A stretch of 64,000 bases of DNA from Parcubacteria bacterium OLB19. GTDB lineage: Bacteria; Patescibacteriota; Minisyncoccia; Phycocordibacterales; UBA918. Below the pieces are notes generated by a model that worked only from the letters and a program-made list of their open reading frames with translations, ran no database searches and was not told the origin of the DNA. Each line of letters begins with the position of its first letter. Within the stretch, counting starts at the first letter, position 1. The translations under genes were made by a program, and so were the position numbers. Positions 3,482 through 38,650 of this stretch are shown here, in pieces. The stretch lies in NCBI GenBank assembly GCA_001567365.1, contig JZEL01000013.1, positions 39,058 to 103,057 on the forward strand, given 5' to 3'.

Positions 3482-4968
<1,487 letters not shown>

Positions 4969-5371
4969 GAAGACAGGGCACTATAGACCGAAGTCTATGT
5001 GCATCTGCGTTTGTGAGCATAAATGCGGTACTGTACTAATTCCCGCGCTCAACAAACTATTTACCTAAAGGATAAGACAAAAGAAAGGATAAATAATTAT
5101 CAAAACTTTTGCCTAAAAATTGTGCTGTGATGCATACCATTTCAAGTAGTTTTAAAAAACTACAAAAAACAATATACGTACCATATCTAATGTTGGGCAT
5201 TAGATATGTTGTATGAAATTTTCAAATTACAATGCTCCTTTTTGAAGATAGTGAGAAAGACAAGGACGAGCCTTAATCTCCTCTTTTTGTTACCTCCAAC
5301 GAACAGTGCTGAGCATTATACAGATGTAAAGAAAATATGCAAGTACCTATAGTTGAAAATAAAAATACCGC

Positions 5372-15674: not shown

Positions 15675-17067
15675 TTAACGATGGAATTTTATGGTTACAC
15701 CAAAACGAGACAATAGCGTTTTGATGGTTCTAAGTGCAACATCAATATCTAATAAAAAAGACCGATTTTTTACATAATAAAGATCATATGATAAACGTAT
15801 TTTCGTCTCTTCTAGAGATTGTGGACTAATGTTATTTCCCATATAGTGCTGATGAGTTTGCGCCCAGCCGGTCACACCTGGTTTAACAAAATTACGAATA
15901 TTGTAGTAAGGGATTTCTTTAGCTAAACGTTCACCCAAACCTTTAATATCATTGCGAGGACCAATTAGAGACATTTCTCCTTTCAAAATATTTAATACTT
16001 GCGGTAACTCATCAATACTAAGCTTTCGCAATAAAGCACCGACCTTGGTCACTACATTTCCTTCTTTAGCATCTTCGTTAGTCCAAGTAGAACTTGCGCT
16101 ACGATTTTCGGTCATGGTTCGAATCTTATAGACAATAACTTTTTTATTAAATTGTCCGATGCGTTCTTGAGTAATAAACAAATCGCCTCTACCTTCAAAT
16201 CTCATAGCCACATAAATAAATGGTAAAAGTAACAGTAGCACTAGACCAAGAGCAAGTGAACCAACTACGTCCACCACTCTTTTTAAGGCATCATAAACAG
16301 GGCTTTTGGCTTGAGACACATTCGTAATAAACCATTCATAATTTAAAGCTGACAAAGGTACTCGATCAAAAGTATCTTCGTAGACTTTATAGAAATCCAA
16401 AAAAGTTAGCTCGAAACGCAAAAAAGCTAAATCAAACAATTTTGGTAAAACCTTATCTAGATAACCATCATTGGTATTGGCTACAATAATATCGATCTTC
16501 TCTTTCTCGATAAGTTGCAAAAGTTTAGTTTCAAAATCAACCGTCTCTGTCGCAGTCTTCTTATCAATAATACGAACGAAGAAGTAATTATAACGGTCGT
16601 TGTTGTTTACTTCGTCGACCAATTCAATCGCTTCCGGACCATCAGCCAGAATAATGGCACGATGCATATTTTTTGGAATAAATCGATTATACAAATACAT
16701 GCGCCACCAAGTAAAAAACAGCCACACTAATAAACATATAGATAACCAAATTGGTCTTAGGAGCGATGCCAAAAGGTATAACAAAAAAAAGTAAAAATGC
16801 CACGATGGCATTTACCACTTGCGTATTCAGAATTCGGCTAAACATTAATGATTTAAAGAAAACAGTCTGTTTATCATAAAGACCAGCAATATAAAAAATC
16901 AACAACCAAACGGCAGAAATTATCAAAAACGGACCCAAATGACTACCAAACAATTCTGCGCTAGGAATAGATAAATAACGCACAAAAAGAGTCAGCCACA
17001 AGGCTACGACAAAGAAAAATATGTCACCAATAATAAGAATTAGCAGTTCTCGTGTACGCTCTCCCAT
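15675..17067 (-). CDS. polyprenyl-phosphate glycosyl-phosphotransferase (WbaP-like bacterial sugar transferase), split into two ORFs by a frameshift in an A/T homopolymer
   Basis: ORF 16687..17067 supplies TM helices; ORF 15675..16811 carries the catalytic C-domain (KIRTM...DELPQVLNILKGEMSLIGPR...PGVTGWAQ). Combined length ~464 aa equals a full-length WbaP-like protein. The overlap 16687-16811 contains an A8 run at 16783-16790; removing one base gives a continuous frame (...AFLLFLLYLLASLL...). Confidence 0.6.
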
Positions 17068-17208: not shown

Positions 17209-18373
17209 ATGCTATTGGTAATGGAAACCACTCCTCAAAATCATAATAAAATTCTTTACATTATAACCAAATCGAATTTTGGTGGTGCGCAAAAATACGT
17301 TTATGAATTAGCTACAGAAATGAGCAAACTTGGTTACGAAGTAGCCGTCGCTTGTGGTGGAAAAGATGAATTAGTGGAAAAATTACACCAAGCCAATATT
17401 CAAACTTATGAAGTTACAGGTTTTCAACGTGACGTTAGTATTTTTAAGGAAATAAAAGCTTTCTTCTCTTTAATTAGAATTATTCATAATTTCCAACCTG
17501 ATATCGTACACTTAAATAGCGCCAAGGCCGGTGGTTTAGGCGCCTTAACCTCTCGTTTACTTAGAGTACCAAAAATCATCTTTACTGTTCATGGTTGGTC
17601 TTTTCTTGAACCGAGACCACGACTTTGGAAAATTTTAGCTTGGTTTGGTTCTTATTTTACTTGCCTTTTAGCACACAAAATAATCACCGTCAGTCAGCAC
17701 GATTTTAGACACACCAACATGCCCGGTGTTCAGAGAAAACTCACGACCATACACACTGCTATCGCTCCCTATCCTCTTCTACCTCGTGAAGAAGCCAGAG
17801 AAAAATTAATAGGTAAAACTTTAACCAATCAACACTTATCCAACCTTTGGTTGGTCACTATTGCTGAACTCAACAACAACAAAAATCACGTCACTGCGAT
17901 AGATGCTGTAGCTGAATACAACAGCTCTCATGCCAACAAAATTTTTTATACTTTAATCGGTAGCGGTGAATTACAAAACTCACTCAAAGAGCAGGTGAAC
18001 CTACGTGGAATGACTGATTATGTTCTATTCCTTGATTATGTAGAAAACGCTAAACAATATCTATTAGCATTTGATATATTCCTTCTGCCATCAAAAAAAA
18101 GAGGGGTTGCCTTACGTTCTTCTTGAAGCTGGATTAGCCGAACTACCATGTATTGCCAGTCGAGTCGGCGGTGTTCCCGAAGTTATATCAGACCAAGAAT
18201 CAGGCTTACTAATAAACCCAAACAATCATATGAGTATCGTCGAAGCACTCACACAATTAATGAACAACCCAGACGAAAGAATGGCGTATAGTTACAATTT
18301 AGCTGACTCTATAAAAAATAATTTCAATCTTGAGCAAATGACTAAATCAACTGAAGCAATTTATAATCATTAA
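17209..18373 (+). CDS. glycosyltransferase family 1 (GT4-type), split by a frameshift in an A8 run
   Basis: N-terminal GT1 domain (ORF 17209..18126) and C-terminal EGLPYVLLEAGLAELPCIASRVGGVPEVI motif (ORF 18071..18373). The A8 at 18093-18100 read as A7 gives LLPSKKEGLPYVLLEAG. Confidence 0.65.
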
Positions 18374-19506
18374 TCAAAATTCAGTGGGCCAGATGTTTGG
18401 TTCTTGGCTAGTCGTTGATAATTTATATGACCACGCATACCGAGTACCATCGCTATCGCCAAAAATTCTATAATCAAATGAGAACCACCGTAACTCAAAA
18501 ATGGCACCGTTGTACCCGTCACTGGCAATACACCGATATTAATACCCACATGTACAAAAAAGTGTGCCAATAGCATTATAACCACTCCAGTGGCAAACAG
18601 CTTTTCAAAATTACTAACCCCCATAGTGGCATGATACAGTAAGCGCCAAAACACTACTCCGAACAAGGTAAATAACACCACCACCCCAACCAAACCCCAC
18701 TCCTCAGCAAAAGCAGCGAAGATAAAATCTGTTTCATATTCTGGCAAATAGAGAAACTTTGACTGTGTACCGTAACCAATTCCCTTTCCTAATATTTGTC
18801 CAGACCCCACAGTTACCGTTGATTGATAAGCATTATAACCAGACCCCTGAATATCAGACAAAGGATCAACGAAAGTCATGATTCTTTCTTTTTGATATTC
18901 TTGAAAGACAAACTGCCACATGCCACCAAGAGCCACCATTCCTAACAAAAACACTACTGCTACATGCCTAAAACGAATTCCAGCCACCAACACCATACCA
19001 AACCAAATGGCAAAAATAATCATAGCTGAGCCAAAGTCAGGTTGAATCAATATCAAACCAAAGACCACTAGTACATAAAATCCGGAAACTAAAATATGTT
19101 TAAAATCACTAATGAGTTCATGTCTCTTGGCAAAATATTTCGCCAAGAGGGCAATCAGTATCAATTTAGCTGGGTCAGATACTTGTAAAGAAAAAAAGCC
19201 AAAGTCAAAACGCTGTCGTGCACCCAAGGTCATCTCACCAAAAAATAACACTAATATTAGAAGTAGAATTATAAAAAGGTAGGAGTAAAAAATAATATTA
19301 CCAGTACGCAAAAAACGATAATTGGGAATTATAGCCAAGAAAAAAACCACTACCGCCAAAAACACCCAGATTATCTGTCGATTAAAGTAAATATTATCCT
19401 CGACTGGTGAATACATTGTCACCAAGCCAAAGATAGTAAGGCACATTATTGCCCCAAACAAAATACCGTCAAATCCGGAGAATAATGTTCGCCAAATACT
19501 CCTCAT
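18370..19506 (-). CDS. ftsW: FtsW/RodA/SpoVE-family peptidoglycan glycosyltransferase (cell division / elongation)
   Basis: Ten TM helices and conserved SEDS regions (FDPLSDIQGSGYNAYQS..., YLPEYETDFIFAAFAEEWG). Confidence 0.8.
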   Translation of the reverse strand: MRSIWRTLFSGFDGILFGAIMCLTIFGLVTMYSPVEDNIYFNRQIIWVFLAVVVFFLAIIPNYRFLRTGNIIFYSYLFIILLLILVLFFGEMTLGARQRFDFGFFSLQVSDPAKLILIALLAKYFAKRHELISDFKHILVSGFYVLVVFGLILIQPDFGSAMIIFAIWFGMVLVAGIRFRHVAVVFLLGMVALGGMWQFVFQEYQKERIMTFVDPLSDIQGSGYNAYQSTVTVGSGQILGKGIGYGTQSKFLYLPEYETDFIFAAFAEEWGLVGVVVLFTLFGVVFWRLLYHATMGVSNFEKLFATGVVIMLLAHFFVHVGINIGVLPVTGTTVPFLSYGGSHLIIEFLAIAMVLGMRGHINYQRLAKNQTSGPLNFD

Positions 19507-19524
19507 GCCTACAGCATATACAAA

Positions 19525-20964
19525 CTAACGCAAGGGTGCAAAGTTAGCATCAGTTTTGGTAATTACATCAATACGAGCTGGCCCCATCTCGCAAATGTCA
19601 TTTGCAATTTCTTTATAAACTCGTTCTAGATCCTTTATGGTTGGAGCTTCATAATAAGTATCCTGACTAGAGGCTAAATTTTTGATCAATGTTACATCCC
19701 TTTCTACAGCCTCTGCTTTACTAAAGAAATCTCCAAAACCAATAGCATAAATAGTCACATCTGACTCTTTAGCCTTACTAGCCATATCAACAGCATACTT
19801 ACCAGCATATTCACGATCGGCTTTATTGGTCTTTGGATTTAAAGGTCTAGTTACATCTCCGTCAGTTAAAAATACTATGACTTTTCTAGCATCTTCCCGA
19901 TGTCTTTCACTAGTTAATTCATCCAACGCAACTGCGAAAGCGTCACCCATATTGGTATATTGCACACCTTTGGTACCCATTTTAGTACTCTGAATAGAAT
20001 CAGATACCAACTTAAAATCGCTAGTTAATGTTTGTTCTATAGGTTTTGTTGGTTCAGTAGCGTATGACAGATAGCCAACTTGGTCCTGCTGGCGTAGCAA
20101 CTTAACAAACATCTTAGCTGACTGTTTTGCACTTTCAAGCGGTTCTGGTGGAACACCACCATCAGCCGCCATTGATCCCGAACGATCCAAAACCAAAACT
20201 ACATCGGATGGAACTTCACAACTACGCACCGTTTTCGCAATCGGATTCGGCCAAGTAAATACAATATCTTTTTCTGTTCTGGCTGAAAATTCATCAATTA
20301 CTGTTTGTGAAGAAGTTAGTGGTTTACCTTCTTGATTAAAAATTGTTGCCACTACCTCCACCTGTTTAGCATCGGTCAACTCAGTGTTTTCGAGTTTTAC
20401 ATTTAGTTTCGGTCTAGCATCCGCACCAACAAGTTCTATACTCATAGTGCGAAACTGACTACGCCCAATGGTGGCTGGTAACCAAGTTTTGGCTTCTTCT
20501 AAAACGATTTCTGTTTTTGTTGGTACTAAATTATCTTTAGTATAAACCCTGCCCTCAAAAATTGGATAAGTGCTATCTGGAGGCAAAACGGTCACTCCTT
20601 TTCTTTCAGCAATCACCTCATTACCATTAAAGAGACGAAAGGTATAAGTTAGAGTTGGAGTACCAGCTTCTTTGTTTTTATTAGCAACATAAGCTACCGC
20701 ATTATACTGCCCATCTACAACCTTAAAACTTTCCGCCCATATTACCTCCGGTGGCACAACCGTAAAGGCACAGATCAGCGTACAACTACCACCACAATCC
20801 ACACCAACTTCATTATTATTCAACACGCCATCGAAACAATTTGCTGGAGTATAGAAAAAAGCAAAGTATATAGTCAAAAATACTAGAGAACAAAAAGTAG
20901 TAAAACCAGCACCGTACTGTACTCTACGCCAAAAAGCCCATGGTCTTTTAATATTCAAATGCAT
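19525..20964 (-). CDS. membrane-anchored von Willebrand factor A (vWA) domain protein
   Basis: MIDAS motif VLVLDRSGSMAADGG plus downstream vWA elements (LTDGDVT, AIGFGD). The start was set at MHLNIKRPW (20964) because the track start 21036 lies inside the upstream terminator hairpin. N-terminal TM helix. Confidence 0.6.
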   Translation of the reverse strand: MHLNIKRPWAFWRRVQYGAGFTTFCSLVFLTIYFAFFYTPANCFDGVLNNNEVGVDCGGSCTLICAFTVVPPEVIWAESFKVVDGQYNAVAYVANKNKEAGTPTLTYTFRLFNGNEVIAERKGVTVLPPDSTYPIFEGRVYTKDNLVPTKTEIVLEEAKTWLPATIGRSQFRTMSIELVGADARPKLNVKLENTELTDAKQVEVVATIFNQEGKPLTSSQTVIDEFSARTEKDIVFTWPNPIAKTVRSCEVPSDVVLVLDRSGSMAADGGVPPEPLESAKQSAKMFVKLLRQQDQVGYLSYATEPTKPIEQTLTSDFKLVSDSIQSTKMGTKGVQYTNMGDAFAVALDELTSERHREDARKVIVFLTDGDVTRPLNPKTNKADREYAGKYAVDMASKAKESDVTIYAIGFGDFFSKAEAVERDVTLIKNLASSQDTYYEAPTIKDLERVYKEIANDICEMGPARIDVITKTDANFAPLR

Positions 20965-21015
20965 GGATTTAATTATAACAGATTTGTTTACCTCGCTATT
21001 GTTAATTAAACTCAA

Positions 21016-21056
21016 CCAAAATAAAAACAACTTCATGAAAATGAAGTTGTTTTTAT
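21016..21056 (-). terminator. hairpin terminator after the large repeat-protein gene
   Basis: aaaaacaacttcat-gaaa-atgaagttgttttt with a T-run on the minus strand. Confidence 0.55.
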
Positions 21057-21067
21057 TTAATAATTAA

Positions 21068-24000
21068 TTAGACTTCTCCTCCTGTAGCCACCACGTTAAT
21101 TCTGTATTCTGCTTCAGCTGATACTGAAGGCTCATCATCAACGGTACATTTGACTTTTATAATCTGAGTTGAAGTCAATTCTCTAGTAGTATATTCTTTT
21201 AGAGTAACATTTGAACTGGAATTTGGTTTGTGATTAAACTCCTTAACATGATCATCAACACCATACACATTACAGGTCACATTCTCGTCTGAAGTAATAT
21301 CTATTTTAATATCAGCTGTCTGACTTTTTCTTATTAGACTTGGTTCAGCTGTAATTTCAATTGTTGGTGGTATAGTTGTTGAAACAACCGGAACTGAACT
21401 AGATTCGCAAGTATAAACTTTAGTAGTTGCGTTATAAGTTTCTACTAAGCTTGTATCACATCTTGCGTATACAACCACAGAATCAATAGGACTAGCCAAA
21501 TGACTACTTCTAAGAGTGAAGTTTGTCCCACCGTAATCAATTGAAGTAACTCTGCTACTTACTATATCTTCTGGTCTATCTAAAGACAACCACACAGCTC
21601 CCCTCTTATCAACCTTAACGTCTAAATAACCATTTGAATTCCATCTCACAGTAGTACTGCAAGTTCTTGTTCCTGGTATGGTTATAGTACAATCATCAGC
21701 TTCAATAGAACCGTCTGGCAATGGAGACACGCCTAATATTACTGTTACACTCTTTGATATATTACCAAAAGGACCATTACAATCTAAAGTGAAAGTTGTA
21801 TTAGCAGTGATTGGGGAACTATCTGTAGAACCATTAATACCTTTTAATCCACCCCATCCACCACTAGCTGTACAATCTGTAACATTAGTTGCATTCCATT
21901 CTAATCTTGTAACATTACCATAAGAAACAGTAGTTGGGTTAGCAGTGAAACTTAATGTAGGTGAATTAACAACAACAGAGGAAGGTGTATAACTAACCGT
22001 TACTGGATTACTCCAAGGACTACAACCACCTGAGTTACAAGCTCTTGATCGTAAGGTATTCACCCCAACACCTAAACCAATTGCTTCGGGTGTACCTTTC
22101 CAATTCGTACCCGCACCTACGTTATAAATCAAACTATCAACCATAACATGGTAACTATTGGGAACATTATTACCGTCCCATTCAACAGTTATTGTATCTG
22201 TCGCTGTTACATTTGGCTTATCAACCCATATATTGGAAATTGTTGGCGGTGTCGCAATTGGGTGAACAACTAGGGGTTTTATACTGCTCCAAGGACCACA
22301 ACCGCTAGCATTACAAGCTTGAACCGAGACGGAATAAGAACCATCTGCTAGACCTAGCTGTGAAGGAGTGCCACACCAATTTGTTTCAGAGCCCATAATA
22401 TAGACCTTACTATCAACCTTTATATTGTAATTAGTTGGACTATTGTTACCTGACCAATTAGCACAAAAACCATTTATGGGTGTTAAAACATAGTCGGATG
22501 ATAACACTATATTTATATCTGCAGAGGTTGGTGCCACACCAGTAGCCGAACCGGTGACATTTATAATTTTATCATCACTCCAATCACTACAACCAGCAAG
22601 ATTACAAGCTTGAACGGAAATTGTATGTAGGTCTGCCCCCCAACCTAACATGGCAGGTGTACCAGTCCAAGACACTGCGGAAACTACTGGATATATAACT
22701 TTCTTGTCAAGCATAATATTGTAATATGTTGGAGTATTATTACCAGACCAAGTAGCAGTGAAGGTACCACTAACAGGCACACTAGAAGGACCTACATCAA
22801 AGCTTGATAATGTTGGTTTACCTACAACCGGACTAGTTACTGTCAATTCAGCTGGATCGCTCCATTCACCGCAACCACCAGTATTACAAGCTTGGAAATA
22901 TATATGATGTTTTCCAGGATACAAGCCCAAGGATTCTGGTGTACCAGTCCAAGTATTAGTCACACCAAAATACATTCCTGCATTATATAAAGTGCTATCT
23001 ACTAAAGCGTTATAGTAGTAAGAATGAGTATCACCAGACCAAGTAGCAGTGAAGTTCTCATTTGTGGCTACAGATTTAGGATTCACATTAACTTTTGCTT
23101 TACCTGGAGTCGGCAGAGCGCTAGTTATAACTAGTTTTTTAGAAGGACTCCAGTCACTACAACCACCTGAGTTACAGGCCTGAACAGATACATAATGTGT
23201 TCCAGCCGGTAAAGCAAAAGATGTAGGAGTTCCTGTCCAGGTGTCTGCTGAACCCATGTCATATACGACACTATTAACTTTTATATTGTAACTAGTTGGA
23301 CTATTGTTACCGCTCCAATTTGCTGTGAAGTTATCCAAAACCGATGTGTAGGGTGGGTATTGAATCAAATCGACAGAAGACGTGGTTGGAGCAATTTCAG
23401 AAGAAACAATCACTTCAATGGTTTCGATAGCACTCCAATCACTACAACCATGTATATTACAAGCTTTTGAAGCCACAGAATAAACAGTATCTTTTACCAA
23501 CCCCAACGATTCTGGTGTACCAGTCCAAGAAGTTAAAGCACCCATAGATACTTCCTTTCCATTAAATCTAAGTACGTAACTACTAGGGGTATTATTACCA
23601 GACCAAGTAGCAGTGAAGTTTCCTTTCAATGAAAGCTTGTTTGGGTTAACACTAATATAAGATATTGTAGGGGCTTTACCACCTGGAACAACTGTTATTG
23701 AGCCTGAATCAATAACTTCCAATATTTTAGAAGGACTCCAGTCACTACAACCACCTGAGTTACAGGCCTGAACAGATATTTTATTAACACCAGTCACTAG
23801 CTTAGGCACCAAAGAATCTGGTGTACCAGTCCAACTTGTAGCAGGACCAACATCATATACATTTGAATTAATCATCATCTTATAACTACTAGGGGTATTA
23901 TTACCAGACCAAGTAGCGGTGAACTCACCTGTAGGCGCAACTGAAGTCACACTTAACGATAACCATGAATTCGTTGGCTTATCTTCCAAGACTTTCAACA

Positions 24001-24352
24001 TCTTAGAATCACTAAGTAGACACCCACCTGAGTTACAGGCCTTAATACTAACATTATAATCCCCTGGCGTTGGCTTGCCAGACCAGGTAGTAGACATACC
24101 GACTGGAGTTTCTACACCATTTACAATTATGGAATATGATGTTGGGCTATTGTTAGCAGACCAAGAAGCATTCACAGTAGTTCCGTAACTAGCAGTGAGT
24201 GGGCTGACTGTCCAAGTGGTAAAGGTTGTGGGTTTAGCAGCATAACTAACGAAAGGAACTACTAAAAAACAAAACAATACTGTAAAAAATAAAATTAAAT
24301 ACTTTCTGTATTCACTAAATATGAGCTTGGGATTGTAAACATTTTTAATCAT
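21068..24352 (-). CDS. large cell-surface protein with ~10 tandem ~95-aa Ig/FN3-like repeats carrying a conserved ACNSGGCSDWS cysteine motif
   Basis: Signal/TM N-terminus; a repeat unit (T/S)ATWSGNN(S/T)P(S/T)SY...V.....W(T/S)GTP.....G...(V/I)SVQACNSGGCSDWS recurs about 10 times. DNA-level repeats are visible, e.g. ggactccagtcactacaaccacctgagttacaggcctgaacagata at ~23148 and ~23738. The C-terminal 350 aa are non-repetitive. Confidence 0.7.
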   Translation of the reverse strand: MIKNVYNPKLIFSEYRKYLILFFTVLFCFLVVPFVSYAAKPTTFTTWTVSPLTASYGTTVNASWSANNSPTSYSIIVNGVETPVGMSTTWSGKPTPGDYNVSIKACNSGGCLLSDSKMLKVLEDKPTNSWLSLSVTSVAPTGEFTATWSGNNTPSSYKMMINSNVYDVGPATSWTGTPDSLVPKLVTGVNKISVQACNSGGCSDWSPSKILEVIDSGSITVVPGGKAPTISYISVNPNKLSLKGNFTATWSGNNTPSSYVLRFNGKEVSMGALTSWTGTPESLGLVKDTVYSVASKACNIHGCSDWSAIETIEVIVSSEIAPTTSSVDLIQYPPYTSVLDNFTANWSGNNSPTSYNIKVNSVVYDMGSADTWTGTPTSFALPAGTHYVSVQACNSGGCSDWSPSKKLVITSALPTPGKAKVNVNPKSVATNENFTATWSGDTHSYYYNALVDSTLYNAGMYFGVTNTWTGTPESLGLYPGKHHIYFQACNTGGCGEWSDPAELTVTSPVVGKPTLSSFDVGPSSVPVSGTFTATWSGNNTPTYYNIMLDKKVIYPVVSAVSWTGTPAMLGWGADLHTISVQACNLAGCSDWSDDKIINVTGSATGVAPTSADINIVLSSDYVLTPINGFCANWSGNNSPTNYNIKVDSKVYIMGSETNWCGTPSQLGLADGSYSVSVQACNASGCGPWSSIKPLVVHPIATPPTISNIWVDKPNVTATDTITVEWDGNNVPNSYHVMVDSLIYNVGAGTNWKGTPEAIGLGVGVNTLRSRACNSGGCSPWSNPVTVSYTPSSVVVNSPTLSFTANPTTVSYGNVTRLEWNATNVTDCTASGGWGGLKGINGSTDSSPITANTTFTLDCNGPFGNISKSVTVILGVSPLPDGSIEADDCTITIPGTRTCSTTVRWNSNGYLDVKVDKRGAVWLSLDRPEDIVSSRVTSIDYGGTNFTLRSSHLASPIDSVVVYARCDTSLVETYNATTKVYTCESSSVPVVSTTIPPTIEITAEPSLIRKSQTADIKIDITSDENVTCNVYGVDDHVKEFNHKPNSSSNVTLKEYTTRELTSTQIIKVKCTVDDEPSVSAEAEYRINVVATGGEV

Positions 24353-24355
24353 AAT

Positions 24356-25204
24356 CTATTGTTTTGCTATTAAAATCACTTCTTTGGCTACAGTATCCGT
24401 ATTATCTAGATTGGCTTCAGGGTTAAAGCTAAAAAATATATCATCTCCAACTTTAATATCACTAATATTTATCTCTTTTTTTGCATGCTTAATATTGTAA
24501 CGATTTTCATCATTAATACTAAAAATATCAGTATTGCCCCCTAGTGTAATAGTCAGTTTTTCGGTACCTGCTTGATTGAATAAATATGGTATATATTCAA
24601 TCTTAGAATTTTCTAAATTAACCACTCTACCTTTTACATAAGACATAGAACTGTTTACCATTTTCTCTGACTCTGTAGCAAGTGTTTCAGTAAACTTATC
24701 TTCACTAACGTTAACAATACTTGAAATTGATAAAATATTTTCAATCAAAACATCATTTGGTCTACCATTAAAAATAACATTAACAACATCTCCTTCCTTT
24801 AAATTAATTAAGTTTAATTCAACTTTTCCACTTCTAAGAACAGATCCATCTGTATCTTTAGACACAATTAATTTTTGTATTAAAGTATTTTGTGTTAACT
24901 TTAATTTAACATCTTTATCACCAAAATTAACTTTTTCCCCTAGAGTAAATTCACTTGAAGAAAGTTTTACATACATCTCACCCTTATCATAATCTATCGA
25001 CTTAATTGACGCATTGGCATTTAGTGTTTTTATTTCTATTTCAGTATTATTTGCAGTATCCAAATTATCTACAACCGTAATCTCTTTAGTATTAGACAGA
25101 TAATTCCAGCCAATAACTAATAATAAAATTAACATTACAGCAACCAACACTAAACCAAAACCTTTCTTCTCTCTTACCACAGCTTCCGATAAATTGTTGT
25201 CCAT
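24356..25204 (-). CDS. membrane-anchored hypothetical protein, co-oriented 4 nt upstream of the repeat-protein gene (probable operon)
   Basis: ORF track; N-terminal TM helix GFGLVLVAVMLILLLVIGW; beta-rich Asn/Lys-rich ectodomain. Confidence 0.45.
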   Translation of the reverse strand: MDNNLSEAVVREKKGFGLVLVAVMLILLLVIGWNYLSNTKEITVVDNLDTANNTEIEIKTLNANASIKSIDYDKGEMYVKLSSSEFTLGEKVNFGDKDVKLKLTQNTLIQKLIVSKDTDGSVLRSGKVELNLINLKEGDVVNVIFNGRPNDVLIENILSISSIVNVSEDKFTETLATESEKMVNSSMSYVKGRVVNLENSKIEYIPYLFNQAGTEKLTITLGGNTDIFSINDENRYNIKHAKKEINISDIKVGDDIFFSFNPEANLDNTDTVAKEVILIAKQ

Positions 25205-25277
25205 AAAATAATATGTTTAAAGATTTATAAATTTTAATGTATTGTAACATGCGCAATTTTCATTAAAGCTGAAAATA

Positions 25278-25310
25278 AACAAAAAACACCGCAAAGCGGT
25301 GTTTTTTGTT
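25278..25310. terminator. rRNA operon terminator (palindromic)
   Basis: acaccgc-aaa-gcggtgt flanked by A6 and T6 runs, just downstream of the 5S on the minus strand. Confidence 0.55.
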
Positions 25311-25328: not shown

Positions 25329-25437
25329 TGTTGGCGCCTACCTACTCTGCCCCTTACGGAGTACCATCGGCGATGAAGAGCTTAACTTCCGTGTTCGGAA
25401 TGAGAACGGGTGTACCCCCTTCGCTAAAGCACCAACA
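25329..25437 (-). rRNA. rrf: 5S ribosomal RNA
   Basis: The reverse complement TGTTGGTGCTTTAGCGAAGGGGTACACCCGTTCTCATTCCGAACACGGAAGTTAAGCTCTTCATCGCCGATGGTACTCCGTAAGGGGCAGAGTAGGTAGGCGCCAACA matches the bacterial 5S consensus (CCGAAC...GAAGTTAAGC...GCCGATGGTACT...GAGTAGG). Confidence 0.8.
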
Positions 25438-25861
25438 TTAAATTTTCAATAAAGTCATCTTGTATCGCGTGAGATAATTCCCAACCGTAGTTGAGAGGGA
25501 GCGCGGGAAACTGGGAAACCAGTATTATCAAGTATCTTTATCCATCACAGTTAAGTGTAAAAAAAAAAAACTTAATATCCCGCGCAAAATCATCTCACGC
25601 GATACATGCAAATGCATATTCTTTTTTGGTAAAACCACAATTCAAAATTGTACTCTGTGCACAACATCAGCTTATATATTATGATTTATCATCGATATAC
25701 AGCGTTCCTTACAGTCGAGTGAATGAGTGAAATAAAAGCGCGATAGCATTTTTATTTCCGAGTAAATGAAGACTGTATAAACAATCTCCACCCACATCAT
25801 CCGACGTAAGTTAAACACCTGAATATCTATTCTCATCGATATACAGCGTTCCTTACAGGAA

Positions 25862-29142
<3,281 letters not shown>

Positions 29143-29884
29143 CCTGTAAGGAACGCTATATACCGCTTCTTTTAAAAGCGACGTTCCTTACGGATGTTGT
29201 GCACCGCTGCACAATTTTGAGTGTTGTCTGGTCTCTGAAAAATACAGTAATCAGAACCAGACTTGTGTTTTGGTTTGCTGTGGACGAAAAGACCCTGCTT
29301 GAGGCATAAATCTTTACACAGCAAACCTGTTTTACCTACAGCGTGAAATCACGAAGTGATTTCACGCCACTGCCACGTGTGCGTCGAAACACACGTGGAC
29401 TTTTCGGAACCGACCTTATCAAATCGGTTCCTAGAATATGCAGTTGTATGGACTCTTCCATACAACTCACCTTCGCTCGGTTATACGAAAGTAAAACTTT
29501 CATGCAACTCTCGCTCAGGTGATTTGTCAATGACCGCGTACCTCCTTGAATTTTAGTTTAAAAGACCGCGTGACCGCGGGAGAAAATCGTAAACGAATTT
29601 CGCGCGGCTAGCTTGTTCTTTTTCTAAAACTCATAAATACGTGACCGCCATTCTATACGAATGAAAAATAAAGTCAAGCGCTTATTGTGGTCAAAAACCT
29701 CTAGTTATCTCCACTTTTATACACACTTTTATACACAGGGATTTATAAGGTTATTTGATAAGGGTAATTTAAAAAAGCTGGAAAATTACAAAGCAATTTT
29801 CCAGCCAAAACTAAAATCAAAACTGTTAATTTGGAACATAAAAAAATCTCCCCGTAAAAACAGAGAGACTTTCAAGAAGAACAC

Positions 29885-31090
29885 TTAGTATAATTTATTC
29901 CAATCTATCCACTTCCATTCAGTCCAATCGTCCGTATCAGGATTGATAAAAGTTGTGTACCTTATTAATGGGTTGGCTTTATTGGTAATTTGTACCACCG
30001 CAGCTGGTTTTCCCGAATCGAGAGTAAATGCCATCATATGCAAAATCCAGTCTGGATGCCAATCATTAATAACTTTATGATCAGTTGTATCAAAAGAAAC
30101 AAAACGATCGTCGTACTTGACCGCATTTATCATATCAAGACGAGCCCTATCTGACTGAAAATTATTACTTGGGGTTGGTAAATAATAGGTTACACCAGAC
30201 AAAGTGGACATAACCCTATACTCCTTCCCTACTTCAAAAAAGTGTGCGTCTACATTGGTAGTGTAGTAATACCACTTACCGTCACTTTTTTTATATTGTA
30301 TGTTGCGAGACGTGATCCATCCCGCTTCCACTGCATGTCTAAAGGTTTTTACTACCCCATCCTTTTTAACATAAGCCAGAGAAGATGGTGAATTTGAAGC
30401 TGATCTATAATAACTCCAAGTTAAATTGTTTGCAGGCCAAGTTTGGTAATAACGCCTATCATCCACAACTAGTGACGGAGGAAGATACTTTACCGCCTTG
30501 TCTATAGTAAGAGGTAGGATGTACGGATTTGCACTTACTGGAACAGAGGAAGTCAAATCATATCTCATCTCCCAATGTAAGTGGGCAAAAGTAGTTCCAG
30601 TTTTACCTAAATAAGCCACCGTCTGCCCTTTTTTAACTTTAGCACCATCTACAATACCTGTACCCATTTTTTGCAGATGTAACATTGCACTTTCTACCAC
30701 CATCACTCCGGCAGTATTCTGTGAATAAGGAAAGGTGTGCCTCGAATAGAAGCGCTTACCTTGACCAGAAACGGTCCCTACAGAATCAAGCAAGACAACC
30801 TCACCATCAGCAATTGCCAATAATGGATAACCTTCGTCAGTATCATTACCACACCTACCGTTCCAATCTTCACCCATATGGAACTTCTCTATTTTTTGGT
30901 CGGGATTGAACTCCATATGGAACTGATGTGAATCACCATTGGTTGACCAACCTGGAATTGAACACAACGGACCAGTTTGGTTTTCATTGAACGGCAGTCC
31001 TGTTAGACCAGTTGGCTCCGGATAAGAACCTGCTAAAGATAGATTGCAAAATAAAAAACCAAAAACAACAAACAATGATCTTAATTTCAC
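29885..31090 (-). CDS. secreted M23-family (LytM-like) metallopeptidase with C-terminal extension domain
   Basis: Signal peptide; HMGEDW (HxxxD) and AHLHWE (HxH) zinc-binding motifs separated by a Gly-rich beta region. Confidence 0.7.
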   Translation of the reverse strand: MKLRSLFVVFGFLFCNLSLAGSYPEPTGLTGLPFNENQTGPLCSIPGWSTNGDSHQFHMEFNPDQKIEKFHMGEDWNGRCGNDTDEGYPLLAIADGEVVLLDSVGTVSGQGKRFYSRHTFPYSQNTAGVMVVESAMLHLQKMGTGIVDGAKVKKGQTVAYLGKTGTTFAHLHWEMRYDLTSSVPVSANPYILPLTIDKAVKYLPPSLVVDDRRYYQTWPANNLTWSYYRSASNSPSSLAYVKKDGVVKTFRHAVEAGWITSRNIQYKKSDGKWYYYTTNVDAHFFEVGKEYRVMSTLSGVTYYLPTPSNNFQSDRARLDMINAVKYDDRFVSFDTTDHKVINDWHPDWILHMMAFTLDSGKPAAVVQITNKANPLIRYTTFINPDTDDWTEWKWIDWNKLY

Positions 31091-36661: not shown

Positions 36662-38650
36662 TTAAGAACCTTGTACAGTCTCGTAACCAGTTCGGAAGTC
36701 TTGAGCTGGAGTTGGTGTGTAAGCCTCAGTAGATGTAATACCATCTTCATCTGAAGTGTAGTTTACATTACCAAGTTGTACACGGTATTGACCAGTAGCA
36801 AATGGGTCAACAGTTACAGTCAATGTGAATGTTTCTGTTTCACCTTCACGTACTGTGAATACACCTGAAGTGTCTTCATCAGCAGTTGATGAAAGAACTC
36901 CTGACGAAGTAGCTTTGCCACCATCAACAGAGAATTCAACACCAGTAGTTGCTGAAGTTCCTTCAGTTGCTAGTTCCTTGATGTAGAAATCACCTTCTAC
37001 AGCAGTAACTTCGAACTCAATAGTGAACTTACCGATAGTATCGTTTTCACCTTGTGTATCAGTTGTAGCTTCTACACCATCAACTGGTACAACGATACCT
37101 TCAGCTACTAGAGTATGTGACTCACCGCTAGCAGAACCAGAGAATGTGTCAATATCATCAGCACCTTCAGCGTCAGTTAGATCACGTTCTACTGAAGTTA
37201 CGTTAGCTTCGATAGTTGTACCATTTGAGTAACGATCAACGTTAGTTGAAGATTCTTGTGACTTGATGTCAACAACAACTGCAACTGTTACTTCATCATC
37301 AGCATCAATGGTTACATCACCATCAATATCGAATTCGAAAGTAGTTGTGTTAGCAGTAGTACTTGCTGAGTTTTCAGCATCGAAACTTTGTCCATCGATT
37401 TCAAGAGCAATATCATCAATTACAAGTGATGAAGTAGCTGATGTATCAACCTTTACAAACAATGTGTTAAGTTCAATATCACCTTCTTGAGCTTCGATAG
37501 TGTATTCAAGGATAGTTACACCATCTGTTGAATCATCTGTATCAACTACGATATCTGTAGCATCTGGGTTGCTTGAAGCAGTTCCGAACTTAAGTTCTTC
37601 ACCTTCACCTTCTTCAACGATTTCGAAAGCAGCTGAAGCTGATGGCAACTCATCTGTTGTGGCAACACCGTCAGCATCGAAGTAACGTACTTCTGTAGCT
37701 GTAAGTGTCCAGTCACCTTCATCTGATACACCAGCGTCGTCAACTGAACCTGCAACTGTAGCAGCAACAGTAACTTCTACTTCTTCATCTTCCATAAGTA
37801 CTAGACCTACGTTTGTGAAGCGGAATGTACCATCATCTTCATCTAGGTAATTATCCTCGTCTGAAGCGTCGAATGAAGCAACTTCTTCACCGTCTACCCA
37901 TAGAGTAATCTCTTCGAATACTTCCCATGGATCGTTTTCAGTGTTGTCACCATCAGTTTCGATAGTGAAGTCCATACGATCAATTTCGATGTCTCCATCT
38001 GTAGCTTCCATTGTAATTTCAGCTAGCTCTGCATCTTCTGCACCTTCTTGTACATCAGTGTCAGTAGCATCATCCATTTCGAATGTGTCTAGTGAACCTT
38101 CACCTGAAAGTTCATTTGATTCTTCTTCCTCTTCTTCATCTGTTGATCCTTCCTCCTCATCTTCGTCTGGAGTTGTAGTAACAGTGTTTAGAGCATTAGC
38201 TTTAGCACGTGTTGATGGACCAAAGTAACCAGTTGGGTTTACTAGACCAGCTGGTGAAAGGATATCAGCACGGTACTTAACTTGGAACTTAGATACTGCA
38301 GCGGTTGTAGCTGGACCATAAGTCTCAGTTTCCATACCAGCAGAACCAGCACCTGTAGCAGCTACACGAGTATCTGGGTCAGCGTTCAAGAACTTTTGTA
38401 GTTCCTTTACATCAGCACCAGTCATGCCTGTCTTAAGGTCACGAGTCCAAGTGTATCCGCTAGCTGTAGCGCTACCTTGTCCAGCTTGTGCTTGGAGAGT
38501 AGCGATTTGTGCTAGTAGATCATTAATCATCTTTTGTAGATCTTCAGCTGACTGTTGAGCGTTTGAAGCTGGAACAGACATTGTGAAGATCATTGCTAGT
38601 GCTACAAAAGCAACAGCTGCCTTTGAAGCAAAATCTTTTGCAATAGTCAT
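36662..38650 (-). CDS. secreted peptidoglycan-binding-domain protein with a long, extremely acidic Asp/Glu/Thr-rich region (S-layer/cell-surface candidate)
   Basis: Signal peptide; PG_binding_1-like segment LKTGMTGADVKELQKFLN...ETYGPATTAAVSKFQ; then ~450 aa dominated by D/E/T/V/G (e.g. EDEEEGSTDEEEEEESNELSGEGSLD). Confidence 0.65.
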   Translation of the reverse strand: MTIAKDFASKAAVAFVALAMIFTMSVPASNAQQSAEDLQKMINDLLAQIATLQAQAGQGSATASGYTWTRDLKTGMTGADVKELQKFLNADPDTRVAATGAGSAGMETETYGPATTAAVSKFQVKYRADILSPAGLVNPTGYFGPSTRAKANALNTVTTTPDEDEEEGSTDEEEEEESNELSGEGSLDTFEMDDATDTDVQEGAEDAELAEITMEATDGDIEIDRMDFTIETDGDNTENDPWEVFEEITLWVDGEEVASFDASDEDNYLDEDDGTFRFTNVGLVLMEDEEVEVTVAATVAGSVDDAGVSDEGDWTLTATEVRYFDADGVATTDELPSASAAFEIVEEGEGEELKFGTASSNPDATDIVVDTDDSTDGVTILEYTIEAQEGDIELNTLFVKVDTSATSSLVIDDIALEIDGQSFDAENSASTTANTTTFEFDIDGDVTIDADDEVTVAVVVDIKSQESSTNVDRYSNGTTIEANVTSVERDLTDAEGADDIDTFSGSASGESHTLVAEGIVVPVDGVEATTDTQGENDTIGKFTIEFEVTAVEGDFYIKELATEGTSATTGVEFSVDGGKATSSGVLSSTADEDTSGVFTVREGETETFTLTVTVDPFATGQYRVQLGNVNYTSDEDGITSTEAYTPTPAQDFRTGYETVQGS

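Follow-up and report, generated by a model that had tools for sequence, protein, structure and literature searches.

We analyzed a 64,000-nt window of the genome of Parcubacteria bacterium OLB19, a bacterium of the candidate phyla radiation (CPR); all coordinates count from the first letter of this window. On its minus strand, the 23S and 5S rRNA genes are followed by a terminator and by four protein genes, encoding successively a membrane-anchored protein (the anchor), a giant repeat protein that is 100% identical to UZ19_OD1000327, a membrane protein with a von Willebrand factor A (vWA) domain and its metal ion-dependent adhesion site (MIDAS), and a RodA-type protein of the shape, elongation, division and sporulation (SEDS) family. 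The arrangement 23S-5S-variable slot-vWA-rodA is a backbone conserved throughout the class Paceibacteria, and within it the vWA protein stands as a core partner of rodA rather than an accessory adhesin. The giant protein is one of a large family whose hallmark is a special C-terminal domain, here called the tail domain, and the genes of this family are strongly enriched beside the vWA gene. We propose, with a probability of about one half, that the locus consists of two adjacent, separately transcribed units behind the 23S-5S genes, anchor-giant and vWA-rodA, whose products would be linked by docking of the giant's tail on the vWA MIDAS.

The vWA-rodA pair and the variable slot

The comparison set consisted of 80 species-representative vWA loci, 76 of which had enough downstream DNA. 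A RodA-type gene directly follows the vWA gene in 74 of these 76 loci, with a median gap of 44 nt. In the window, the product of the following gene matches the SEDS family PF01098 (E=2e-81, 274 bits). It scores 318.6 bits with the rodA model TIGR02210 (cut-off 336.7) and 271.7 bits with the ftsW model (cut-off 337.5), and thus reads as a SEDS peptidoglycan polymerase of the RodA/FtsW family, closer to RodA. Homologues of the vWA protein form more than 1000 clusters at 90% identity; they are 59-94% identical and of near-constant length, about 478 residues, and the few clusters with source names come from Paceibacterota, Nomurabacteria and Kaiserbacteria. The constant length, the high identity and the number of clusters argue for a core envelope protein rather than a fast-evolving adhesin.

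The vWA protein is built of a basic N-terminus, one transmembrane (TM) helix, a Cys-rich module, a beta-rich domain and the vWA domain, which matches PF00092 at 70.4 bits against a cut-off of 23.8 (E=2.8e-19) and has a Cys pair near its two ends. In an alignment of 19 sequences, the MIDAS residues (D260-x-S262-x-S264, T337 and D368; DRSGS, residues 260-264, is encoded at 20173-20187), the Arg within DRSGS and six Cys residues are invariant. The single TM helix follows four basic residues, and the vWA domain is therefore predicted to face outward; these residues and the six invariant Cys together point to an extracytoplasmic location. The Cys-rich module after the TM helix is an invariant four-Cys motif, CFDGxxNGxExGVDCGGxCxxxC (residues 43-65, about 20790-20850), which may resemble the CGNGxxExGExCD motif of disintegrin-like or Myxococcus Cys-rich repeats.

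N-terminal TM helix and vWA domain are also features of the BatA and BatB proteins, and weak NCBIfam hits to them were obtained. With the VWA_BatA model, however, the score was 41.5 bits (cut-off 380); the neighbor is rodA, and neither a MoxR nor a DUF58 partner gene lies nearby. A BatA-type system was rejected because of this score, far under the cut-off, and the lack of a nearby MoxR gene.

In 62 of the 80 loci, the vWA gene is preceded by a 5S rRNA gene of the same orientation, at a distance ranging from 69 nt to 9.7 kb. Of the 13 slots that reach 2.9 kb or more, 12 contain a gene for a tail-domain protein. The anchor gene and a giant gene with repeats of the ChitinaseA_N (ChiN) type fill the slot only in the four closest relatives (L001, L002, L003 and L013), and in the remaining species loci of the set vWA-rodA occurs without either gene.

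The intergenic signals separate the two units. Directly after the giant gene stands a hairpin with a folding free energy of -20.9 kcal/mol (z = -5.1), and hairpins of differing sequence occur at the same position after the orthologous genes in the four closest relatives. The extended -10 motif TGnTAnnnT is found 5-9 nt, mostly 6-7 nt, before the in-frame vWA ATG in 60 of 67 loci. The conserved hairpin and this box of its own suggest that vWA-rodA is a separate and probably leaderless unit. The fixed spacing between box and ATG, without a Shine-Dalgarno sequence, would imply that leaderless transcription has been kept throughout this class of CPR bacteria. The anchor and giant genes, with a 3-nt gap between them, are predicted to form the other transcription unit, for which the box TGTTACAAT is a weak promoter candidate. 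The terminator-like sequence behind the 5S gene appears to close the rRNA unit ahead of the anchor gene; given its strength, read-through from the rRNA operon was rejected.

In a preliminary description, made from the letters of the window, the anchor, giant and vWA genes had been read as one tightly spaced, putative adhesion operon. The three co-directional minus-strand open reading frames (ORFs) are indeed present, the single N-terminal hydrophobic segment in each product agrees with the proposed membrane or secreted nature, and the vWA MIDAS is intact as described. The tight spacing stands for anchor and giant; giant and vWA are separated by 103 nt, which contain the strong hairpin. The notion of one dedicated operon is contradicted by this conserved hairpin and by the separate -10 box. 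The three genes, whose co-occurrence in relatives had been suggested as a check, are found together in the four closest relatives only, and most of the 80 loci have vWA alone of the three. The vWA protein, cast there as part of a candidate attachment apparatus, turned out to be the class-wide partner of rodA. The RodA-type gene itself, fourth in the co-directional series, had been missed.

The giant protein and its C-terminal domain

Starting with a predicted signal peptide, the giant protein comprises an array of tandem repeats followed by three domains of another kind. A hidden Markov model (HMM) built from the repeats finds eight units of 87-101 residues, which match the Pfam family ChitinaseA_N (PF08329) in six stretches at 104 bits against a cut-off of 21.2 (E=6e-30). 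Pairwise identity between repeats is 29-54% at the protein level and 44-61% (mean 53%) in codon-aligned DNA. Only A-C-N-x-x-G-C and one Ser are invariant across the repeat motif, and the exact string ACNSGGCSDWS occurs in two repeats. Tandem Repeats Finder reported no array in the giant gene. Repeats 2 and 4, whose identity is otherwise about 61%, share the sole exact DNA duplicate, a 54-nt patch (23137-23190 and 23725-23778) that has the appearance of a short tract of gene conversion. The number of ChiN copies is eight in the window, nine in L001, 13 in L002 and eight in both L003 and L013.

These results revise the preliminary description of the repeats in several respects. It had counted about ten units, each ending in an invariant ACNSGGCSDWS, near-identical at the DNA level and without a named family. 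Copy number does differ between orthologues, as it had anticipated, but the repeats are old and diverged and not of a recombination-prone kind. Its proposal of disulfide-containing modules of the immunoglobulin (Ig) or fibronectin type III (FN3) kind is supported. As the giant consists of such modules and is of the secreted or surface type, a binding role is plausible. The structural check that it advised, on the C-terminal region, gave three beta-sandwiches and, in Foldseek, only generic Ig/FN3 matches.

The profile of the eight repeats matches the N-terminal domain of chitinase A (ChiA) in solved structures of the PDB; phmmer with the whole giant against the PDB found nothing. From this homology, the repeat unit is likely to be an FN3/Ig-like beta-sandwich. 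A Cys pair (C-x4-C) and a Trp are invariant in all eight repeats. The Cys pair aligns with A-C-x-x-x-G-C of ChiA (A-C-D-A-T-G-C in Vibrio) and the Trp with that of FNQW in Vibrio ChiA; in the fully numbered Serratia chain 1rd6, the reported coordinates place it opposite residue 69. Trp69/Trp70 of ChiA is the exposed residue required for binding of insoluble chitin (PMC2265269).

The likeness to the ChiN domain of chitinase A of Serratia marcescens and Vibrio harveyi thus covers the above-threshold PF08329 match, the Cys pair and the Trp equivalent to Trp69/Trp70. The giant differs in having eight tandem copies, fused to Ig-like and special C-terminal domains, and in belonging to a CPR bacterium. 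Pfam and NCBIfam detected neither Glyco_hydro_18 nor another catalytic domain in its 1094 residues, and a chitinase was rejected because the glycoside hydrolase family 18 (GH18) domain was not found; the same libraries detected no S-layer homology (SLH) or other known wall-binding module in it. Elsewhere the ChiN module occurs in Parcubacteria proteins with PG_binding_1 (P0007 and P0008), in RHS toxins and in proteases, which argues that it is a reusable extracellular module.

Giant Ig/FN3-repeat adhesins, such as the ice-binding adhesin 5irb found by Foldseek, likewise have a signal peptide followed by a long beta-sandwich array and vary in copy number between relatives (8 to 13 for the giant and its orthologues). 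The OLB19 repeats differ in being old and diverged (44-61% DNA identity) and thus not near-identical, recombination-prone units, and a ligand-binding head domain was not identified in the giant.

An AlphaFold2 (AF2) model of residues 791-1094 (pLDDT 74.7) predicts three beta-sandwich domains, C1 to C3, with the last five residues disordered. Foldseek matched the model only to generic tandem Ig/FN3 structures, namely titin Ig, contactin FN3 and complement MG domains. C1 recurs as a repeated module in other CPR proteins (phmmer). C3 has a Pro-rich lead-in and a conserved Cys pair, and ends RINVVATGGEV-COOH.

Among 1.84 billion proteins, a profile of the C-terminal 112 residues retrieved 391 cluster representatives, of which 203 had E≤1e-10. 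In nearly all matches listed, the match reaches the last residue of the protein. The penultimate residue is Glu in 145 of the 147 matches listed; 68 end in QEI and 25 in EEI. No Pfam or NCBIfam family matched any of 17 tail-domain sequences, which gave sub-threshold Ig hits only. The passengers are varied modules of the surface type (ChiN/fn3, LVIVD, CARDB, Flg_new, TSP_1 and Big_2). The tail domain, strictly C-terminal, is an undescribed one, and it may serve as the surface-docking signal of the giant.

The tail was also sought at the C-termini of the 804 complete ORFs of at least 150 aa in all loci retrieved, 24 of which end in [QE]E[IVLT]. All 24 encode large proteins with an N-terminal hydrophobic segment, and their C-termini follow R[IV]x[VI][VI]P[TS]xQEI or VxxExxGxxEEI; the giant of the window has its own variant, given above. 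Seventeen of the 24 genes lie less than 400 nt upstream of vWA, and two lie further upstream in tandem. Two others stand between vWA and rodA (L016 and L048), and these are exactly the two interrupted pairs of the comparison set. The rest come after rpsL-rpsG, a position at which tail-domain genes occur in L004-L007. At another locus (L098), three tail-domain genes stand in tandem before vWA. When metagenomes were scanned reciprocally, with the tail as the query (narrow alignment, seven loci), vWA-rodA was found to follow the tail-domain gene in three of six informative loci.

As a strictly C-terminal beta-sandwich of about 100 residues (AF2 model) that is common to hundreds of secreted proteins with unrelated passengers, the tail resembles the C-terminal signals of the type IX secretion system (T9SS) and the LPXTG signals of sortase substrates, a likeness of design and not of membership. 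It matches no T9SS or other sorting-signal model, is followed by no TM helix, basic tail or LPXTG motif, and has the invariant penultimate Glu as its signature. No LPXTG motif, C-terminal hydrophobic segment or helix, or basic tail was found in the giant, and a sortase-processed LPXTG protein was rejected for want of both motif and C-terminal helix. In the annotated parts of the window, neither sortase nor T9SS genes were seen.

The anchor is a single-pass membrane protein with a TM helix at about residues 12-38, followed by two small beta-barrels resembling the oligonucleotide/oligosaccharide-binding (OB) fold (residues 59-166 and 188-279). Its cytoplasmic N-terminus, MDNNLxE…EK, is invariant among its homologues, of which only five were found among 5.8 billion proteins (35-60% identity). 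The family profile also matches a gene of locus L022 (E=4e-7), just upstream of one for a tail-domain protein without ChiN modules.

Proposed docking of the tail on the MIDAS and alternative readings

Coordination of the MIDAS metal is completed by an acidic side chain or a carboxylate of the ligand. Receptors of this kind that bind an acidic residue or a C-terminal carboxylate include integrin I domains, the anthrax toxin receptors, and complement factor B with the C-terminus of C3b. The OLB19 vWA protein shares with them the intact DxSxS…T…D signature, a membrane-tethered vWA domain predicted to be extracellular and a Cys pair near the domain ends, and a candidate ligand, the giant's tail, carries an invariant Glu beside a free C-terminus. 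It is unlike them in being bacterial, class-specific and genetically coupled to a RodA-type gene, and in having an N-terminal Cys-rich module and a beta-rich domain.

In the mechanism that we propose, the anchor-giant unit is a lineage-restricted, fast-evolving cell-surface module. Its ChiN modules have retained the disulfide loop and the exposed Trp, the chitin-binding elements of chitinase A, and the array would act as an extended binding arm for a polysaccharide of the N-acetylglucosamine (GlcNAc) type: chitin, or else peptidoglycan through its glycan strands. This target could belong to a partner cell or to the wall of the bacterium itself. Two Ig-like spacers follow, and then the C-terminal Ig-like domain with the invariant Glu in its free tail. 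The vWA-rodA unit is a core, probably leaderless unit across the class Paceibacteria, whose vWA protein is, as part of the envelope, coupled to the SEDS wall polymerase. The extracellular MIDAS of the tethered vWA protein would capture the invariant C-terminal Glu or the carboxylate of tail-domain proteins and so tether them to the surface without a covalent bond, close to where the wall is synthesized, and the variable slot beside the vWA gene would be the place where genes of such clients accumulate.

A more far-reaching version can be formulated, in which the C-terminal Ig-like domain (…VIPTxQEI-COOH) would be a new surface-display signal of Paceibacteria, with the MIDAS of a class-wide membrane vWA protein co-transcribed leaderless with RodA as its receptor; this sortase-independent, non-covalent docking would place varied binding proteins at the sites of wall growth. 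It is decidedly tentative and, in our opinion, unlikely in this full form. A PDZ-type protease could in principle also read the hydrophobic C-terminus of tail-domain proteins.

Several points weigh against the docking model. The contact between tail and MIDAS is putative. Export of the giant through the Sec pathway, with cleavage of its signal peptide, is predicted by rule, and binding of a GlcNAc-type polymer by the ChiN array is suggested by homology; ChiN-like modules in RHS toxins and proteases may act as spacers only. The slot is empty (less than 1 kb) in 34 of 62 loci. In the other three of the six informative loci of the reciprocal scan (L091, L092 and L096), the gene after the tail-domain gene is not vWA; rplC-rplD-rplB follows. 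As half of the tail-domain genes found by that scan are away from vWA, and several others sit beside ribosomal-protein operons, adjacency to vWA could be due to a bias toward sites that are permissive or highly expressed.

The last point leads to the strongest of the alternatives, namely that the locus is an insertion hotspot and nothing else. The slot behind the rRNA genes would be merely permissive or highly expressed, the vWA protein would work only with RodA in wall synthesis, and the giant would be held by an uncleaved N-terminal helix, by the co-transcribed anchor or by its C-terminal domain on the wall. The tail-domain genes found after rpsL-rpsG or just before rplC-rplD-rplB, the occurrence of related ChiN/PG_binding proteins within ribosomal-protein clusters and the many empty slots are all in line with this view, as are the separate transcription signals of giant and vWA and the proximity of the anchor gene to the giant gene. 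It fits less well with the two inserts that split vWA from rodA, the only ones to do so, which are again tail-domain genes, or with the 17 of 24 tail-domain genes that abut vWA. It also leaves the invariant Glu of a free tail, encoded beside a gene with an invariant MIDAS, as an unexplained coincidence. We take this alternative seriously and consider it somewhat unlikely.

Next comes the possibility that the tail-domain proteins are abundant structural envelope proteins, akin to those of a wall or S-layer. The ChiN modules would bind the glycan strands of the cell's own peptidoglycan, the C-terminal domain would serve for self-assembly or wall attachment, and no partner cell would be involved. 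The glycan strands of peptidoglycan resemble chitin, the proteins P0007 and P0008 join ChiN repeats to PG_binding_1, and the genes adjoin highly expressed operons and that of a wall polymerase. The passengers, however, are very varied and evolve faster than is usual in a structural lattice, many genomes have an empty slot, and the giant has no detected SLH or known wall-binding module, so that we find this reading improbable.

A single three-gene adhesion operon, with the vWA MIDAS as the adhesive head on a host surface assisted by giant and anchor, is very improbable and largely refuted by the comparative data: the genes are co-directional, adjacent and syntenic in four close relatives, all three products face outward and vWA domains mediate adhesion in other systems, but the vWA protein is constant in length, 59-94% identical across more than 1000 clusters and paired with rodA in 74 of 76 species with or without the other two genes, vWA is set apart by a conserved hairpin resembling a terminator and by a promoter box of its own, and the anchor has five homologues only.

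Little is known of how the ultra-small, host-dependent CPR bacteria construct their envelope or fasten themselves to partner cells, and most of their surface proteins are unannotated. Our literature searches on vWA, RodA and surface proteins in Parcubacteria or the CPR, and on OLB19, returned nothing on these genes. The ChiN-type array is a candidate attachment arm, and the C-terminal-domain family, with its roughly 390 clusters, offers a means of cataloguing the surface proteins encoded by Paceibacteria genomes. The class-wide 23S-5S-vWA-rodA backbone ties a MIDAS protein to a wall polymerase. If docking of the tail on the MIDAS is true, it would represent a new principle of surface anchoring; if it is false, the locus would be an ordinary variable slot for surface proteins beside housekeeping genes.

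Layout of the locus and minor observations

Table 1. Features of the rRNA-anchor-giant-vWA-rodA locus, in the order of transcription
Feature	Position	Strand	Basis or remarks
23S rRNA gene	25851-29149	-	Rfam
5S rRNA gene	25329-25436	-	Rfam
Predicted intrinsic terminator after the 5S gene	25278..25310	-	15-bp stem, then T run
Candidate extended -10-like box TGTTACAAT	25241..25249	-	About 36 nt upstream of anchor ATG; read from sequence
Anchor gene, 282 aa	24356-25204	-	ORF
Giant gene, 1094 aa	21068-24352	-	ORF
Predicted Sec signal peptide of giant (aa 1-38)	24239..24352	-	Basic n-region, hydrophobic core, S-Y-A then A at the predicted cleavage site; sequence and hydropathy
Eight tandem ChitinaseA_N (ChiN, PF08329) modules (aa 38-790)	21983..24241	-	Pfam and repeat HMM
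Ig-like beta-sandwich domains C1 (aa 791-880) and C2 (aa 881-990)	21383..21982	-	AF2 model, Foldseek, phmmer mapping
Strictly C-terminal Ig-like domain C3 (aa 991-1094)	21071..21382	-	Alignments, AF2 model
Terminator-like hairpin, 18 bp, with A-tract/U-tract flanks	21019..21058	-	Directly 3' of giant stop codon
Extended -10 box TGTTATAAT	20972..20980	-	7 nt upstream of vWA ATG; no Shine-Dalgarno sequence
vWA gene, 479 aa	19525-20964	-	ORF; start at 20964 backed by alignment with 18 orthologues
RodA-type SEDS gene	18370-19506	-	18 nt downstream of vWA gene

Beyond rodA lie genes for a glycosyltransferase of family 4 (GT4), a Bac_transf sugar transferase, an epimerase, FolD and SecDF. The GT4 gene is split into two overlapping plus-strand ORFs (17209-18126, 305 aa, and 18071-18373, 100 aa), which encode the N- and C-terminal halves of the domain. 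Its orthologue in L002 is a single gene of 418 aa, and the split is an apparent frameshift or assembly error. The Bac_transf gene is split as well, into minus-strand ORFs at 15675-16811 (378 aa) and 16687-17067 (126 aa) that overlap by about 125 nt; the orthologue has 463 aa in L002, and the L001 copy is split too.

The 16S rRNA gene (3513-4971) is unlinked from 23S-5S: it lies about 21 kb off on the same strand, with protein genes between. The 23S gene, at 3299 nt, exceeds the 2925 positions of the model by about 370 nt. In some relatives, the matches to 23S extend over about 5.5-5.7 kb (478-6192 in L012, 161-5698 in L042 and 2847-8509 in L058), which suggests large insertions or introns.

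Two other minus-strand genes of the window encode proteins of the envelope type. One, just upstream of the 23S gene (29885-31090), encodes an M23 peptidase of 401 aa, a neighbor also seen in L001; the other (36662-38650) encodes a secreted-type protein of 662 aa with a PG_binding_1 domain. Genes for large secreted proteins of the tail-domain family and for related ChiN/PG_binding proteins recur within or next to ribosomal-protein operons, in L008 between the L15 and SecY genes, and this siting may point to a need for high expression. In L001, on a long JGI contig (11618-14272), vWA and rodA are each broken into two to three ORFs, probably by assembly frameshifts rather than as true pseudogenes.

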